A DNA stretch of 19,700 nt from a virus, in UHGV virus genome UHGV-1796434; one strand, given 5' to 3'. The notes below the pieces were generated by a model. It ran no database searches, was not told the origin of the DNA, and saw only the letters and a program-made list of their open reading frames with translations. The position numbers and the translations under genes were made by a program. Below, in pieces: positions 11,648 through 17,631 of the stretch (the stretch's first letter is position 1; every line of letters starts with the position of its first letter).

Positions 11648-12853
11648 TTACGCCGCTGCAATCTTCAGCAGTTTGATGGCCTGCGAATCGACCAGCATCC
11701 CGCCGGTGCGCTTGGTGGTATAAAAACCGACAAACGGTTTATTGGTGTACGGGTCACGCAGAATGCGGGTGCCGATACGGTCAACGATGGTGTAACCCCG
11801 TTTGAAGTTACCAAATGCAATGGCTTTCGCATCAGCGGCGATATCCGGCATCTGTTCGTTTTCAGCGATACCGTAACCCGCCAGAGAGGACGGCTGCCCC
11901 AGTTCCAGCCCCGGACGCCACAGATAGTTACCCTCGGTGTCTTTCAGCAGACGGATGGCAAACAGGCTGTTGTTGTTCATCATGAACTTCGCGCCAGTGC
12001 GGTGTGCCTTACGCAGCGTGTAAATCAGTTTGATAATGGCGTCTGCGGTCACCGCGGTCGCTTCGCCGGATACAATATGCTGAAGTTTGCCGAACGCCCG
12101 GACCTTGTCGGTTTCATCAGTGGATTCATACGCCAGGAACCCTTTCGGCTTCTTGGTGCCATCGCCTGAGGTAAAGGCAATTTCTTCCTGTTCGGCAAAT
12201 TCGGTTGCCAGCTCGCTGTTGATCCAGGCCTCCACGTTGAAGAAGGCATCGTCCAGCATTTTCTGGGTAGCCTGCGGGTTGCCGTAGATTTCCCCCATGA
12301 GAGGTTCAATCAGCTCCAGTCTGGAGGTGGCAGTCTGGGATCGCGTATCCGTTTCCCCCACCCACCCGGAAGCCGTACCGCCCAGATTCACCAGTTTTTT
12401 GTAGTCGGAACCGCCAACGGTGATCACCGTGGCTTCCTGACGCATCACCACTTCATCTTTCAGCAGGTTAAGAATGTTGCGATCCAGTTCTTCCGGCACG
12501 GCGTAGCCACCGTCTTCATCGGTACCCACCTGCAATGCCTTACGCTCCAGATCGCGCAGACCGTCTTCACGGCCTTTACGTAGAAAGCCCACAAACGCCT
12601 CTTTATGCTCGGTGGCCAGTTTATTTTGCGCTCCACCTGCCGGACGTTTCAGCTCAAGCAGCTCTTTTTCAAGGTCGCTTTTGAGATTTTCCAGCTCGCT
12701 GAGTTTCCCGTTCAGGGTTTCCACCTGCCCGGCAAGCTTGCCTTTTTCCTGCTCAATCGCATCCACGCGCTTGTCGTTCTTTGCTTTGAAGTCGTCAAAC
12801 TTCTGCTGCAGCTCCTGCGCGACCTGTTCGACATCTTTAATATCAACCGCCAT
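11648..12853 (-). CDS. Major capsid protein, HK97 family
   Basis: 401 aa track ORF; ATG at 12851-12853 with AGGAGA SD. Charged coiled-coil-like N-terminal segment followed by a capsid-type body; position after the protease. Confidence 0.8.
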   Translation of the reverse strand: MAVDIKDVEQVAQELQQKFDDFKAKNDKRVDAIEQEKGKLAGQVETLNGKLSELENLKSDLEKELLELKRPAGGAQNKLATEHKEAFVGFLRKGREDGLRDLERKALQVGTDEDGGYAVPEELDRNILNLLKDEVVMRQEATVITVGGSDYKKLVNLGGTASGWVGETDTRSQTATSRLELIEPLMGEIYGNPQATQKMLDDAFFNVEAWINSELATEFAEQEEIAFTSGDGTKKPKGFLAYESTDETDKVRAFGKLQHIVSGEATAVTADAIIKLIYTLRKAHRTGAKFMMNNNSLFAIRLLKDTEGNYLWRPGLELGQPSSLAGYGIAENEQMPDIAADAKAIAFGNFKRGYTIVDRIGTRILRDPYTNKPFVGFYTTKRTGGMLVDSQAIKLLKIAAA

Positions 12854-12867
12854 CGTATTTCTCCTGA

Positions 12868-13518
12868 TTAGAAGTTCAGATTTTTCAGTGCATTTAGTGC
12901 AGAGCCCACATCCTCAGCGTCGCGCAGGGACAGTGCGCCATAGCCCCCGGCCATGAATGCTTTGGCCTGGGTACGGGAGAGTCCGACATCACGCAGGACT
13001 CTTTCGATTTTTTTCTGTTCGGGGATTTCCCCGCGGGCCAGCGCGTTCTTGACGTCGCTGATCCGCGCCTCGTCGTTAGACGGAAACGTCACCAGACTGA
13101 CTTCCCAGAGGTCGATTTCTTTCAACAGAAAGGCTTCTTTGCTCCGGTCGTATTCCCAGTCTTTCAGGACGTACCCAATAGAAAGGCCGGTTAACGAACC
13201 GGCCTTCATGTGTGCATGTGCGCGTTTTGCGAGGGGATCATCATCAATAAGCAACCGTCCCCTGACGTAAAGCCCGACATCGTCTTCCTTCATTTCGGTG
13301 TAAACACCGATGGGTTCATCCATGCGGTGCTGCCAGAGCAGCGCAGGTAACGCTTTTCTGTCACTCCACGCCCGCAGGGAAGCAGCAAATGCCCCGGACA
13401 TCACCACATCATCGTGGCTGTCCTTTACACCAAAGACGGAGCCATACCCTTCAAACTCACCGGAGTCACTGACAGATTTCAGACTCAGCGGTACATCAAG
13501 ACGTTGTTTCGTCTGCAT
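12868..13518 (-). CDS. Prohead maturation protease, HK97 family
   Basis: Track ORF is 12868..13554 (228 aa). I prefer the internal ATG at 13516-13518, which has an AAGGA SD 8 nt upstream, whereas the first ATG has none. Product starts MQTKQRLDV... with an SGEFEGYGSVFGVKDSHDDVV motif typical of HK97-type proteases. Confidence 0.7.
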   Translation of the reverse strand: MQTKQRLDVPLSLKSVSDSGEFEGYGSVFGVKDSHDDVVMSGAFAASLRAWSDRKALPALLWQHRMDEPIGVYTEMKEDDVGLYVRGRLLIDDDPLAKRAHAHMKAGSLTGLSIGYVLKDWEYDRSKEAFLLKEIDLWEVSLVTFPSNDEARISDVKNALARGEIPEQKKIERVLRDVGLSRTQAKAFMAGGYGALSLRDAEDVGSALNALKNLNF

Positions 13519-14737
13519 TGGCGTTATCCTTCTGCTTACCGGCTTTACTGCCATCGGAGGGTTTCGTGGTCATGTTCATCGGTGTGAGATAGACATCCCC
13601 ACCGGGACGCGGATTCATATCTTCCAGGCCGCGGCAGTCATTGGGAGAGTAAATTCCCCAGTTAATCCCGGTGGCGTAGGCTTCAAAACGGGACTTCATA
13701 TCCCCGCGCAGTAACGCCCCGGCGTTAAATTTGGCGTAATAAACGCCCTGCTTACTTTTTCGTACCAGTCCGGTGTTGATCCGCTGCTCAATGCGGGTCA
13801 GATACGGCACCAGTGAATAGTTGATAAATCCGAGCCCCAGCTCTTCGATATTGTTGAAGGTGGCGCGATCGGTGTTCTGCACCATGTGCAACGGCACCCG
13901 GAACAGACGACAAATTTCTTCAAGCTGAAACTTGCGGGTTTCCAGGAACTGGCTGTCCTCTGCGTTCAACGCCATCGACTTCCAGTCCAGCCCCATCTCA
14001 AGGATCATCGGGCGGTGAGCATTGCCAAGCCCGGTGTGACGCTCCTCAAAATCTTTCTTCAGGCGCTCATAAGCCTGATCCGACAGCGTCTGCTCTGTAC
14101 GCAAAACACCCGACGTCACCGCGCCATTGCTGAACAGTCTGGCCCCGTGCTCTTCGGTCGCTGCCGCCAGCGATATTGCCTCGCGGGCATAGGCGATGGG
14201 ATTCAGCCCCACCAGTCCGTCCAGCGTCAGCGTACGCACATGCCAGATATCCTCCTGGCTCAGTACATCCGTGGAGCCATCCGGGAATGTGACCTGATAG
14301 ACCGGTTCCCAGCTACTGTTAAGCTTCGGTACCACACAGCCGGGATCGACGGGCAGCAGTTCAGCCACTTCGCCAAATGCTTTCACTTTGTAGGCGTAAA
14401 AGTTTCCCCGCAGGCACAGACAGGTGACCACCAGCTCCCAGAACTCCTGCGGCGTCATATAGCCATTGGGATGCGTGGAGATCAGTTTATGCAGACGTTC
14501 GCCGGTGGCTCTCTGCTTCAGGCTGCCGTTCAGGTGATACAGATTGCAGGGCAACATCCCGACCGACTCTGCCAGCACTCTGACGCAGGAAAAAACCGCC
14601 GTCAGTCGCATAGCCCGCTGACTGCTGATCTGCTTTCCGGTATAGGTGTCATACGACAGCCCGATGGCATCCGCCAGCTCTGCTGGCGTGGTCACCGGTG
14701 CGTCACTTTTTCGTTGAAATAATCCCGAAAAGAACAC
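13496..14737 (-). CDS. Portal protein, HK97 family
   Basis: 413 aa track ORF; GTG start at 14735-14737 with GGAGGT SD, overlapping the stop of the upstream small ORF by 1 nt. Confidence 0.8.
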   Translation of the reverse strand: MFFSGLFQRKSDAPVTTPAELADAIGLSYDTYTGKQISSQRAMRLTAVFSCVRVLAESVGMLPCNLYHLNGSLKQRATGERLHKLISTHPNGYMTPQEFWELVVTCLCLRGNFYAYKVKAFGEVAELLPVDPGCVVPKLNSSWEPVYQVTFPDGSTDVLSQEDIWHVRTLTLDGLVGLNPIAYAREAISLAAATEEHGARLFSNGAVTSGVLRTEQTLSDQAYERLKKDFEERHTGLGNAHRPMILEMGLDWKSMALNAEDSQFLETRKFQLEEICRLFRVPLHMVQNTDRATFNNIEELGLGFINYSLVPYLTRIEQRINTGLVRKSKQGVYYAKFNAGALLRGDMKSRFEAYATGINWGIYSPNDCRGLEDMNPRPGGDVYLTPMNMTTKPSDGSKAGKQKDNANADETTS

Positions 14738-14919
14738 TATTTACCTCCGCCGACAGACGACTGTGTACGGTCGAGATATCGCGCCACCAGCCACGACCAG
14801 AACAGGCACAGCGCCCCGGCAACAACAAAACCCGCCGGGGGATAAATCAGCCAGGCACCATACGCCAGCAAAAGCGCACCCAGCACGCCCACCAGAGGCG
14901 CGAGAATCAGCATGATCAT
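14737..14919 (-). CDS. Small hydrophobic protein with two predicted transmembrane segments
   Basis: 60 aa track [66 protein letters not shown] at 14917-14919 with GAGGT SD placed just after the terminase stop; its stop overlaps the portal start. Confidence 0.45.
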
Positions 14920-14930
14920 AATTACCTCAG

Positions 14931-16664
14931 TTAAAGCGAGCGGATCCCGTAGGACTCAATGTGATCAGACAGCGTGTCTTCTTTCTCGTACAGCATGGCT
15001 CTGCCAACCGCCATAATCAGCGCAACTGCACCATCGATTTTGTTTTCCGCCTGCTCCTTGACGGGCTTCACCACATCATCGTTACCCGGAATGGTTTTGC
15101 CGACCACGTTGCCGATACACCAGGTCATGATGGGATTGCCGTCATGATGAAAGCGCCCCGATTCAATCGCCGCTTCCAGCTCTTTCATCGGATCGGACAT
15201 GTTGGTGTAGTTCTGAATGATGGTGACGGGGTTCAGGTCTTCATCAGCAAGGTCATGTGACAGCCCGGTCGCCCCGAAGGGGTCGATGGGTGACTCACTG
15301 ACCGGGCTGATTTTGTTCGCCGCTTTGGCCTCTTCGAGGATGTAGCGATAATCCACCTCCGCACCATCGGTAACGGTCAGAACGCCCATTTCCACCCATT
15401 TCTGAAAGCGTTCGGCTGTCCGGCGATCTTCATTTTTCTCGACGCTGTACACCGTGTCATACGGTACCCAGAAACGCGGGGCCACACTGTAGTAATGCGT
15501 TTTACCGTCAATCTCGCGGGTATAAAGTCGCGCCATGCTGTTCATATCCAGCTTACGCGCCAGGTCAAAGGCCAGAATGCACGGCTGCCCCTCGAACTGC
15601 TCAAGGGTCAGTGATTTATCCTCGCAGCTCTGCCAGCTCACCAGGTTGAAATACGCCGAACGCGCCGACACCCAGATATTGAGGTGTTTTGTTTTAAAGA
15701 CGTTTGCCAGACGGGCGTTATTTTTCGCACGCTGCTGCTGACTTAACAAAAATTCGCGATAAACCGACACGCCAATATTTGGATTGGCTTTTTCCAGCAC
15801 CTGCGGGTCGGTCCAGTCGTCACCTTCATCAACGGTATAGATGATCCCGAACAGTTCATCGTTTGGCACCGAGCCGTTGAGCATCTCGATGACTTCCCGC
15901 CGTTTGTCGTAGCACGGCCCCTCAATGTTGTACCCGGCGGTGGTAATGGCCCACATCAGTGGCTGGCGTCGCGCCCCCATCCCGGTAAGCATCGTGGTGT
16001 AAAGCGCATCTGTGGCGTGCTCGTGATATTCATCCACCACGGCACAGTGGGGTGATGAACCATCACCGGGGTTACCGATCAGCGGTTCAAACCGCGCACC
16101 ATCCTCCGGACGGTTCATGTTTGAGGCGTTAACCTCAATCCCGAACGCTTCCGTCAGCATGGGTGTGCGTTTACACATCAGTCGCGCCGGGCGAAAGACT
16201 TCCCACGCCTGTTTCTCTGTCGTGGCACCGGAATACACTTCCGCGCCGAACTCGTTATCACAGGCAAAACAATACAGGGCAACACCGGCAGAGATTGCCG
16301 ATTTGCCGTTCTTACGGGGAATTTCGGTATACACCTCCCGGAAGCGGCGCAACCGGGTGCCTTTATTGACCCAGCCAAACGCACAGCAGATCACAAATAG
16401 CTGCCACGGCTCCAGCGTGATGGGCATCCGTTTAAATGCCCACTCACCCTTGGTGTGCGGCAACAGCTGAATAAATTTGGCGGCCCGTTCAGCCAGGTCC
16501 TTGTCGAAGCGGTAACGAAACGACTTACTTTTTTCCGCCATCAGGTCATCAAGATGGCGCTGGCAGGCCTGAATCACAAACTGGCAGGCAATAATCTTTC
16601 CGCGCACGACATCCCGGGCATACTGATTTGCAGCATTTACGTTGGGGTAAGATTTCCGGCTCAT
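14931..16664 (-). CDS. Terminase large subunit
   Basis: 577 aa track ORF; ATG at 16662-16664 overlapping the small-subunit stop (ATGA). Contains a P-loop-like PRKNGKS segment; length and position typical. Confidence 0.85.
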
Positions 16665-17155
16665 GATTCGATAATTTTCAGAAACGGGTTAGTGGCTTTC
16701 TTCTTCCCCGCCAGGCCAATCAGACGCTGGCGGCTGCTGGGGTCGAGTCCGAGCATTGCCCCCGTACTGCTCATCTCGGACTCCTGTTCTTTTTTGGCGG
16801 TCAGCTCCGGATTTTTGACCATACCGCCCATTGCACCGGTGATGGTGTTGCCCTGTCTGGCAATATTTTTCACGGCACGTCGCCAGAACTCGTAGGCCAC
16901 GCACCACCGCTCAAGCACCGCGAGGTCAGTCACGCACAGCAGGCCCTGACCGCAGAGTTCTTTGGTTGTCAGTTGCCACATGATCGTGGCGAGAGGGAGA
17001 TCTTCTTCAGCGAACCACTCCGGTGGCTCAACACCTTTGATGGGCGTAAAAACAGGTTCATCTTTATTCAGGGCTCGCTTGCCGGGGTTTCCGGCCAGCG
17101 CCTTGCGCGCCGTTGGCTTGGGGCGACGCCCGGAACGCCCCGCCGTTCCAGCCAT
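16661..17155 (-). CDS. Terminase small subunit (P27 family)
   Basis: Track ORF starts at GTG 17164; I prefer the ATG at 17153-17155 ([14 protein letters not shown]...), which has AGGAG 8 nt upstream. Family call from memory of P27-type small subunits. Confidence 0.7.
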
Positions 17156-17205
17156 ATGCGGCACTCCTGGTTAAATTTCATTTTTCGCGGGTATAAAAAA
17201 ACGAT

Positions 17206-17280: not shown

Positions 17281-17631
17281 TCACTTCAACCGTTCACGGG
17301 CCGTCTTCGCCTTATGACACGGCCAGCACAGACTCTGCAGATTACAGTCGGCATCAGTGCCGCCATGCGCTTTAGGGATGATGTGGTCAACGGTTTTCGC
17401 CTCGCGCACCACACCAGCACGCAGGCACAACTGGCATAAACCTTTGTCACGTTTCAGCACACGCGTGCGGATAACGTCCCACTTCGAACCGTAGCCGCGC
17501 TGATGACGGGATTGTCCTGGCTTGTATTGCTTCCAGCCTTCGCTTTTGTGGCTTTCGCAATAACCTGACGGGTCAGTGGTGGTATGGCGGCACCCGCGAA
17601 CACGGCAGGCTTTTGGTGTGCGTGGTGGCAT
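17281..17631 (-). CDS. HNH endonuclease (terminase-associated)
   Basis: 116 aa track ORF; ATG at 17629-17631 with AAGGA SD. N-terminal Cys cluster (CRVRGC...C) and C-terminal HNH motif (DHIIPKAHGG...N...LCWPCH). Sits immediately upstream of the terminase genes, as in HK97-like phages. Confidence 0.8.
   Translation of the reverse strand: MPPRTPKACRVRGCRHTTTDPSGYCESHKSEGWKQYKPGQSRHQRGYGSKWDVIRTRVLKRDKGLCQLCLRAGVVREAKTVDHIIPKAHGGTDADCNLQSLCWPCHKAKTARERLK

Follow-up and report, generated by a model that had tools for sequence, protein, structure and literature searches.

A ymfR-family gene for a predicted two-helix membrane protein between the genes for terminase large subunit and portal of HK97-type head modules

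The DNA analysed here, referred to as the window, is a stretch of 19,700 nucleotides from the virus genome UHGV-1796434. Read along the minus strand, it carries an HNH endonuclease gene (17281..17631) upstream of the terminase genes, the gene for a terminase small subunit of the Terminase_4 / P27 family (16661..17164), the terminase large subunit gene (TerL; PF03354 and PF20441, phrog_9; 14931..16664), a small ORF (14737..14919), the portal gene (PF04860, phrog_12; 13496..14737), a Peptidase_S78 prohead protease gene (12868..13554) and the gene for a major capsid protein of the HK97 fold (11648..12853). The listed start of the prohead protease ORF overlaps the 3' end of the portal gene, its true start probably being a downstream ATG, as annotated in SfII. 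The small ORF lies within a late head and packaging operon. A sequence-only reading had placed a 60-codon ORF with two hydrophobic segments at 14737-14919, and both the ORF list and the sequence confirm these coordinates, with 60 codons followed by a TAG stop at 14737-14739; the strand, which that reading left unstated, is minus.

The ORF is packed tightly between its neighbours, with intergenic distances of 11 nt upstream and -1 nt downstream. On the minus strand the TerL TAA stop (14931-14933) is followed by C-TGAGGT-AATT-ATG, so that a Shine-Dalgarno GAGG (14925..14928) begins 2 nt past the TerL stop and ends 5 nt 5' of the ATG, and an equivalent GAGG is present in 11 related loci. At the other end the junction reads TAGTG, the last base of the TAG stop being the G of the portal GTG start codon, and a 1-nt stop/start overlap with the portal gene (TAGTG, TAATG or TGATG) is kept in all 15 of the intact loci. 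The Shine-Dalgarno of the portal gene, GGAGGT (14743..14748), lies inside the coding sequence of the ORF, in its last Gly-Gly codons, and at the DNA level a C-terminal GG[DEK] or KGD corresponds in every case to GGAGG or GGGGG. This arrangement supports the earlier proposal that the ORF would be translationally coupled on both sides, to TerL and to the portal gene.

The predicted protein is a helical hairpin of 60 residues. Hydropathy, the AlphaFold2 helix at residues 2-25 and an alignment of 40 sequences place a first transmembrane helix at codons 2-25 (14845..14916), with G14 and G21 invariant; alignments identify a short, conserved turn, YPPAG, at codons 26-30 (14830..14844), which is predicted to face the periplasm; and hydropathy, AlphaFold2 and the alignment again define a second transmembrane helix at codons 31-47 (14779..14829), with an invariant G35, a WSW motif and R47 as an anchor. 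The remaining codons 48-60 (14740..14778) encode a variable hydrophilic tail ending in GGA GGT AAA, within which lies the Shine-Dalgarno of the portal gene. Kyte-Doolittle means over 19 residues peak at 2.67 in helix 1 and about 1.8 in helix 2, both above the usual threshold of 1.6, and the AlphaFold2 model is a helical hairpin (residues 2-25 and 27-56) with a mean pLDDT of 76.5, in agreement with the original description of a two-helix membrane protein. Because R47, R51 and K60 all lie on the C-terminal side of the helices, the positive-inside rule predicts an inner-membrane protein with both termini in the cytoplasm and the turn in the periplasm. Tandem-duplicated members of the family with four helices occur naturally, which suggests that the hairpins may pair with each other. 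In a fold search the AlphaFold2 hairpin matched only uncharacterised hairpins in BFVD, none of them at E <= 0.001, there was no match in a PDB sequence-profile search or in NCBIfam, and in Pfam there were only sub-threshold matches to two-TM DUFs such as DUF1206 (19/40 members, best E 0.0015, below the cut-off).

Over 183/183 nt the ORF is identical to ymfR of a K-12 derivative, ymfR being a gene of e14, a prophage of E. coli K-12. Among 5426 complete E. coli genomes, 1362 contain the region. The product of the ORF matches phrog_502 ("membrane protein") with an E value of 2.5e-28, residues 1-55 aligning to positions 3-57 of the 58 in the profile, and the same profile is matched by 40/40 diverse family members. 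The same gene has been annotated in SfII (SfII_03), ST64B (sb3), phiP27 (L37) and phiKO2 (gp3), and a literature search found no functional study of ymfR, sb3, L37 or gp3. The gene is thus already named and widely annotated, and is neither a new gene nor a recent add-on. The family comprises 167 clusters at 90% identity, and a profile search extends it to 382 clusters at 50% identity, the clusters of distant members being metagenomic.

The conservation of the family also answers the concern that the frame might be open by chance. The frame is intact in 15/16 genome loci, the copy in Shigella flexneri being frameshifted; dN/dS ranges from 0.05 to 0.45, with pN far below a pS that is near saturation; and the two-helix character is retained across the 382 clusters at 50% identity. 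The ORF is a real protein-coding gene, as the sequence-only reading had supposed. Selection is unevenly distributed along it: pN/pS is 0.2-0.3 in codons 1-47 and 0.6-1.3 in the tail, and in the 40-sequence alignment the three glycines G14, G21 and G35 are invariant. Constraint is confined to the membrane hairpin, including the YPPAG turn, with the C-terminal tail evolving almost neutrally, so that YmfR must act inside the bilayer.

This same distribution bears on the possibility that the ORF is purely a device for translational coupling, in which a translating ORF sets the ratio of TerL to portal and delivers ribosomes to the portal start whilst the peptide itself has no function. Such a device would account for the portal ribosome-binding site inside the ORF, for the overlap of stop and start in every intact locus and for a tail that is neutral except in the codons that encode the Shine-Dalgarno. 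It would not account for purifying selection on codons 1-47, for three invariant glycines or for the retention of two helices in 382 clusters, and in operons of the HK97 type the portal gene is coupled straight to TerL with no such ORF between them; we therefore consider it very improbable.

The order TerL, small ORF, portal is found in 16/16 genome loci. Of ten distant representatives nine lie directly upstream of a phrog_12/PF04860 portal gene, with TerL confirmed upstream in six, and the position at the junction is still kept where portals are only about 30% identical. In addition to ST64B, P27, phiKO2 and SfII the gene is found in SfV, PY54, SfI and SfIV, and it occurs in phages with sipho-type tails (phiKO2, PY54) as well as contractile ones (SfII), and with a protease of either the S78 or the S49 type. 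It had been claimed that packaging operons of HK97-like phages normally have no gene at this position, and this is only partly true: HK97 and mEpX2 have no gene at the TerL-portal junction, but the gene is common in the HK97-type modules of proteobacterial phages. It is present in three of eight evenly sampled proteobacterial phages and is missing from Pseudomonas phi2 and BR123a, Burkholderia PR5 and Vibrio 1243; HK97 and about half of the sampled proteobacterial relatives lack it, as do all four of the sampled phages of Gram-positive hosts. Among the phages examined a closely related portal was always accompanied by the gene, and its absences are in distant lineages. Taken together, these distributions show the ymfR-type gene to be an old and optional component of the HK97-type head modules of proteobacterial phages.

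Several of these comparisons separate the history of TerL from that of the genes downstream. SfV and the window share 97% identity in TerL, with only 33% in the small protein and 29% in the portal, whereas SfV and the Ralstonia phage Dina share 62% in the small protein and 58% in the portal and 36% in TerL. At three Serratia loci (L095, L096 and L098) the portal is 73% and TerL 35-37% identical, at two further loci (L065 and L073) the small protein and portal reach 98% and 99% and TerL 78%, and in phi467 and 606R7 the match begins just before the TerL stop and continues onward. The subtype of the small protein thus tracks the portal and not TerL, the gene being inherited with that of the portal whilst TerL is exchanged. 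A hydrophobic N-terminal motif of the portal, MFFxGLF, was considered as a possible associate of the gene, but it also occurs in the portals of phages without it (NatCom_11578, Javan558, Vash and PR5) and is uninformative.

Several reference genomes miss or mislabel a ymfR-type gene. The small ORF is unannotated in SfV and PY54, and in SfV the annotated start of the portal gene is over-extended across it. Furthermore, some GenBank records label a ymfR orthologue "head-tail joining protein W".

The sequence-only reading had suggested that the gene could be a moron expressed with the late genes, for example for superinfection exclusion or membrane depolarisation. In its more specific form this would make ymfR a lysogenic-conversion gene, expressed from the prophage and blocking the entry of superinfecting DNA in the manner of HK97 gp15, P22 SieA or T4 Imm. 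The gene sits in a prophage and codes for a small protein of the inner membrane, the PHROGs category of the family is "moron, auxiliary metabolic gene and host takeover", and in the defective e14 prophage ymfR has stayed intact between truncated genes for TerL and portal, all of which favour such a role. Against this, ymfR is flanked on the minus strand by neither a promoter-like nor a terminator-like site, the site totals being those expected from shuffled sequence, and junctions of 11 nt and 1 nt are too tight to hold one; a "putative terminator" annotated inside SfII_03 was not recovered in our scan, and the RNA of ymfR shows no special structure (fold z = -0.14). The base composition is that of the neighbours, with a GC3 of 0.67 compared with 0.65 and 0.67, and the small excess in GC (0.60 compared with 0.54 and 0.56) is due to its content of Gly, Ala and Leu. 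The synteny is ancient, the Shigella flexneri copy has lost its frame, there are no matches for YmfR in PADLOC at E <= 1 and no similarity to T4 Imm (hhalign probability 0.15), and ymfR mRNA rises (log2FC 4.5) together with the other tabulated e14 genes on treatment with an SOS-inducing drug (PMC10012262). Its lack of signals of its own, its composition, its synteny and its co-induction with e14 genes thus speak against the moron proposal, which we consider improbable; neither superinfection exclusion nor membrane depolarisation gained support in the analysis. The moron label of PHROGs does not suit a gene that behaves as an old part of the head module with linkage to the portal, and we are highly confident that the ORF is a genuine and known member of the ymfR family that is not a moron.

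The gene may instead encode a late membrane effector that has nothing to do with head assembly, an oligomeric hairpin that alters permeability or potential, tunes the timing of lysis or inhibits a host membrane protein, with its place in the packaging operon serving late co-expression only. There are parallels for such a placement, as in T7 the spanin genes 18.5/18.7 lie between terS and terL and in P2 the lysis genes are inside the late structural operon. The purely intramembrane constraint, the Gly-rich helix faces and the tandem-duplicated four-helix forms would all suit an effector of this kind, as would the dispensability of the gene in many relatives and its occurrence, among the phages sampled, with Gram-negative hosts only. 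Furthermore, an ASKA ymfR clone fed an auxotroph by D-alanine release in a first-round screen, but the signal was common to 65/392 clones and was gone in round two, and the authors partly blame leakage or lysis from membrane-protein overexpression (PMC10299036). A contribution to lysis is also made less attractive by the complete S/R/Rz/Rz1 cassette that SfII-type phages have elsewhere; in SfII these genes are at 37.5-38.8 kb, about 35 kb from the ymfR-type gene by map position. YmfR has two transmembrane helices, its tail carries a net charge of only +1 and is not conserved, and homologues do not share its M1/M3 dual start, so that it would seem to lack the charged C-terminal domain of a holin. 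Unlike the gene of a class II holin or pinholin, ymfR has no place in a lysis cassette beside an endolysin. Finally, accessory genes rarely hold a single position down to about 30% identity of their neighbours. A late effector of this kind remains a tentative explanation, and it is nearly equal to one that links the protein to assembly.

The assembly-linked explanation, which we prefer but hold with low confidence, is that YmfR is a late membrane factor whose role is bound up with the portal or with head assembly. Ribosomes arriving from TerL would translate ymfR and be handed on to the portal gene through the 1-nt overlap of stop and start, so that YmfR would be made beside the portal and just before it; YmfR might then prepare or label the place on the inner membrane where portal-initiated procapsid assembly or packaging occurs, possibly acting through a host membrane protein and not by direct binding of the soluble portal. 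T4 provides the precedent for membrane-bound portal initiation, gp40 being a chaperone for the portal initiator gp20 (PMC9958956, section 3.1). Several findings count against an assembly role: the cytoplasmic tail, the only part able to touch a soluble portal, is unconstrained, the MFFxGLF motif is shared by portals without the gene, HK97, mEpX2, phi2, BR123a, PR5 and Vibrio 1243 build heads without it, all four sampled phages of Gram-positive hosts lack it, and YmfR has no sequence similarity to T4 gp40. The linkage to the portal could moreover be a mere by-product of recombination inside a well-conserved TerL and of the embedded portal ribosome-binding site. In its most far-reaching form, that a large branch of HK97-type phages of Gram-negative bacteria uses YmfR / PHROG 502 as a hitherto unrecognised membrane factor when heads are assembled from the portal or packaged, the assembly-linked explanation seems rather unlikely. 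If true, initiation of procapsids in association with the membrane, of which T4 is the only known case, would be widespread, and E. coli K-12 itself would hold a simple genetic handle of 60 residues for it. The presence of a conserved membrane protein in an operon for head assembly is still unexplained, and could be tested cheaply in K-12-compatible systems.

The position in the head module next to the portal gene would also be expected of a minor virion or ejection component, whose hairpin would be packaged together with the portal or close to it and would enter the inner membrane of the recipient as the DNA enters. Membrane-active ejection proteins are found in other phages, such as P22 gp7/16/20 and phiX174 H. 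YmfR has no soluble domain and no known route to the capsid interior, and the phages that carry it have tails of the contractile as well as the non-contractile kind, in which DNA entry is already the task of tape-measure proteins; a literature search found no virion proteomics data on the family. A role in ejection would thus seem highly unlikely.

Amongst known systems the closest is YmfR of e14 itself (WP_000605606.1; PHROG 502), which has the same length, the same two-helix hairpin and the same position between TerL and portal; in K-12 the flanking TerL (aaaE) and portal (beeE) genes are truncated pseudogenes, and in the window both are intact. More distant is PHROG 7105, the small ORF of the SfV and Ralstonia Dina type, a two-helix hairpin of 50-54 aa at the same junction whose ORF overlaps both neighbouring genes; the SfV protein gives 2e-5 against phrog_502 and 5.5e-9 against the family HMM, but besides its 33% identity to YmfR it has neither the YPPAG nor the WSW motif and goes with another portal subtype. 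Lambda gpW occupies the same slot, between the A and B genes for TerL and portal, and is of similar size (68 aa), but it is a soluble head-completion protein, YmfR is a membrane hairpin, and BLASTP gave no alignment between them at E <= 100, the "head-tail joining protein W" label being a positional mis-annotation. HK97 gp15, T4 Imm, P22 SieA and the class II holins or pinholins resemble YmfR in being small phage proteins of the inner membrane with one or two TM helices; of the exclusion proteins Imm was compared by sequence, with gp15 and SieA likened by description only. T4 gp40 differs from YmfR in being acidic, 114 aa long, without a TM helix and encoded far from gene 20, and homology between the two was rejected (hhalign probability 0.04), so that what they may share is a functional analogy only, gp40 being a small phage protein without which portals are not initiated in association with the membrane.

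The ymfR-family ORF of the window has the coordinates given by the sequence-only reading, which did not name a strand; it runs from 14919 to 14737 on the minus strand and encodes 60 residues followed by a TAG stop. The terminase large subunit gene (TerL, 14931-16664; PF03354 and PF20441, phrog_9) lies upstream and an HK97-type portal gene (13496-14737; PF04860, phrog_12) downstream, within a module of the SfII/ST64B/P27/e14 prophage type that reads HNH endonuclease, TerS (Terminase_4), TerL, small ORF, portal, S78 protease, HK97-fold capsid protein, head-tail adaptors and contractile tail. The longest protease ORF (12868-13554, minus strand) overlaps the 3' end of the portal gene by 59 nt, however the equivalent SfII gene is annotated with an overlap of only 23 nt and therefore a downstream ATG is probably the true protease start.

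All 183 nt of the small ORF are identical to ymfR of the e14 prophage of K-12-derived E. coli ('protein YmfR', WP_000605606.1), and 1362 of 5426 complete E. coli genomes contain a 261-nt stretch around ymfR. PHROG 502 'membrane protein' is matched by the protein (E 2.5e-28) and by all 40 diverse members of the family, and near-identical genes are annotated in SfII (SfII_03), ST64B (sb3), phiP27 (L37, 'putative integral membrane protein') and phiKO2 (gp3, 'similar to phage phi27 gene'). The gene already has a name, ymfR/PHROG 502, and has been annotated widely. Four GenBank records (ON470584.1, ON470603.1, ON470580.1 and PQ793804.1) give the orthologue the name 'head-tail joining protein W'; as no similarity was found between lambda gpW and the ymfR-family protein, this label is a purely positional mis-annotation. 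In the e14 prophage of a K-12 derivative (locus L124, 1894-3631) TerL is truncated at the N-terminus and the portal at the C-terminus, with ymfR between them intact and identical to the window copy. No functional study of ymfR was found in the literature searched, where it is mentioned only in lists of genes lost with e14, one SOS transcriptome and one overexpression screen. Its mRNA rises (log2FC 4.5) alongside the other listed e14 genes, such as ymfL, ymfM, ymfQ and tfaP, on treatment with an SOS-inducing compound (PMC10012262), and it appeared in the first round of the screen, the authors of which ascribe the signal partly to leakage (PMC10299036).

After the TerL stop TAA comes C-TGAGGT-AATT-ATG, with GAGG 5 nt upstream of the small ORF's start codon. 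At its 3' end (...GGC GGA GGT AAA TAG TG) the final codons spell the portal ribosome-binding site GGAGGT, and one G is common to the stop TAG and the portal start GTG. These overlaps and ribosome-binding sites position the ORF for coupled translation between TerL and portal. That it is a pure coupling device is less likely. The ORF is a real, conserved gene: among 16 loci drawn from different bacterial species 15 have an unbroken frame, and dN/dS is 0.05-0.45 (Nei-Gojobori, with synonymous sites near saturation), which is not the pattern of a frame open only by chance in relatives, the outcome that would have told against the sequence-only reading. Of the 16 loci only one has a disrupted copy, that in the second prophage of Shigella flexneri CP182557.1 (L094, 3001-3179), where a 1-nt deletion causes a frameshift after codon 27 and a 71-aa aberrant product.

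Two segments of the protein exceed the usual membrane threshold in hydropathy, as that reading had noticed, and the AlphaFold2 model, built with a 40-sequence alignment of the family as input, is a helical hairpin (H2-25 and H27-56, pLDDT 76.5) predicted to lie in the inner membrane; a virion component is a less likely identity for it. The same alignment, which spans about 30-90% identity, has three invariant glycines, two in helix 1 (G14, G21) and one in helix 2 (G35), and its strongest motif is YGAWL[IV]YxPAG[FY]I. Over codons 1-47 (two helices and turn) pN/pS is 0.2-0.3, compared with 0.6-1.3 over the 13-residue tail, where the sole conserved feature, a terminal GG[DEK] or KGD, coincides with the portal GGAGG or GGGGG. 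Constraint on the protein is confined to its bilayer part.

It had been suggested that the gene is a moron, for example for superinfection exclusion. There are no promoter-like or terminator-like sites flanking the ORF on the coding strand, where totals match shuffle expectation, its GC and GC3 match those of its neighbours and its position is conserved to about 30% portal identity, so this interpretation is not supported. No unusual RNA structure was found at the ORF, and the gene occurs with differing tail and protease types. Exclusion from a lysogen is likewise less likely, the protein having no matches among defence-system models or to T4 Imm. The protein is probably not the phage's holin either, since a full set of lysis genes (S/R/Rz/Rz1) lies elsewhere in SfII.

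A search of 1.84 billion cluster representatives with the family profile (E <= 1e-3) matched 382 clusters, almost all of 45-80 residues. Of ten distant representatives whose surroundings were looked up, nine have a phrog_12/PF04860 portal directly downstream, with 1-nt or 4-nt overlaps; TerL was confirmed upstream in six of these nine, and the protease was of S78 or S49 type; the tenth was a tandem-duplicated form near an S78 protease in otherwise unrecognisable surroundings. Such natural duplications to four helices suggest that the hairpins pair. Four-helix members of 102-122 aa are the profile hits P0152, P0165, P0173 and P0232 and locus L126 (1500-1808); P0173 adjoins an S78 protease, and the protein encoded upstream of it, 320 aa long and without a PHROG match, may be a portal of very divergent sequence. 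A metagenomic relative of high GC content has another two small genes, of 56 and 52 aa, between portal and S49 protease (L104, 5474-5813; L105, 3619-3958).

Named phages with a family member include phiKO2, PY54, Klebsiella Kpn74, Vibrio K233, Ralstonia Dina, Edwardsiella EPP-1 and SfV, and 12 phages evenly spaced among 2061 records holding a portal homologue gave three of eight from Proteobacteria and none of four others. The expectation that HK97-like operons normally have no gene at this junction thus holds for HK97 itself, where TerL is joined directly to portal as in mEpX2, but fails for the wider group. In SfV (L002, NC_003444.1) an unannotated 53-codon two-helix ORF (2289-2450; phrog_7105, 2.8e-21) shares bases with the end of TerL (ATGA). 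The portal gene is annotated from 2392, a start extended across this ORF; more probably it begins at the GTG at 2440, with MLLDALFRSK as its first residues. In Yersinia phage PY54 (L111, NC_005069.1) a 65-codon member (2295-2492; family HMM E 2.6e-25) is unannotated in the 190-nt TerL-portal 'gap' and ends TGATG at the portal start. Both family member and portal are fragmented in Kpn74 (L113, OQ790078.1, 2137-3756), the portal into three CDS, in what look like sequencing or assembly frameshifts. DNA 95-100% identical to the E. coli/Shigella prophage module occurs in a 'MAG: Bacillota bacterium' (L086, JAEWTL010000102.1) and in 'Enterococcus phage Efm 3-10' (OR844959.1, 1764 bp), which probably reflects mis-binning, contamination or mislabelling and not a Gram-positive host.

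In several comparisons sequence identities show that TerL has been exchanged while small gene and portal remained together. SfV has 97% identity to the window in TerL, 33% in the small protein and 29% in the portal, yet compared with Ralstonia Dina the values are 36%, 62% and 58%. Three Serratia loci (L095, L096, L098) give 35-37%, 52-66% and 73% against the window, a fourth (L099), with the small-gene type of L095, gives 85%, 71% and 72%, and two viral contigs (L065, L073) give 78%, 98% and 99%; in phi467 and 606R7 the match begins just before the TerL stop and holds only from there onward. Small-protein identity has a Spearman correlation of 0.65 with portal identity and 0.44 with TerL identity, figures that are descriptive only as the 136 pairs are not independent. 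Among the loci compared there was no case of the small gene parted from its portal type. This linkage could be a functional tie, or could merely reflect crossovers within well-conserved TerL together with the portal ribosome-binding site embedded in the small ORF.

We infer that two roles are about equally likely. It is possible that the protein is a late-acting membrane effector with no part in assembly, which would influence the timing of lysis, membrane energetics or a host membrane protein, the gene staying in the packaging operon for timing only; in T7, spanin genes are located between terS and terL. The purely intramembrane constraint, the dispensability of the gene and the host range of the family favour such an effector, although there is a complete lysis cassette elsewhere and the protein has no holin features. 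Just as tentatively, it may be a membrane factor tied to head assembly, which would prepare or mark the place on the inner membrane where portal-initiated head assembly or packaging occurs. The ancient, portal-linked position within the structural module argues for an assembly factor; the unconstrained cytoplasmic tail and the absence of the gene from many relatives and from those phages of Gram-positive hosts that were sampled argue against it. An assembly factor of this kind would follow a logic known from T4, where the initiator gp20 is bound to the membrane, contacts YidC and depends on a small phage protein, gp40 (PMC9958956). The likeness, in membrane-bound portal initiation and a small phage protein, is one of analogy and not homology, as gp40 is an unrelated protein that lacks a TM helix, whereas the ymfR-family protein is a two-helix hairpin.
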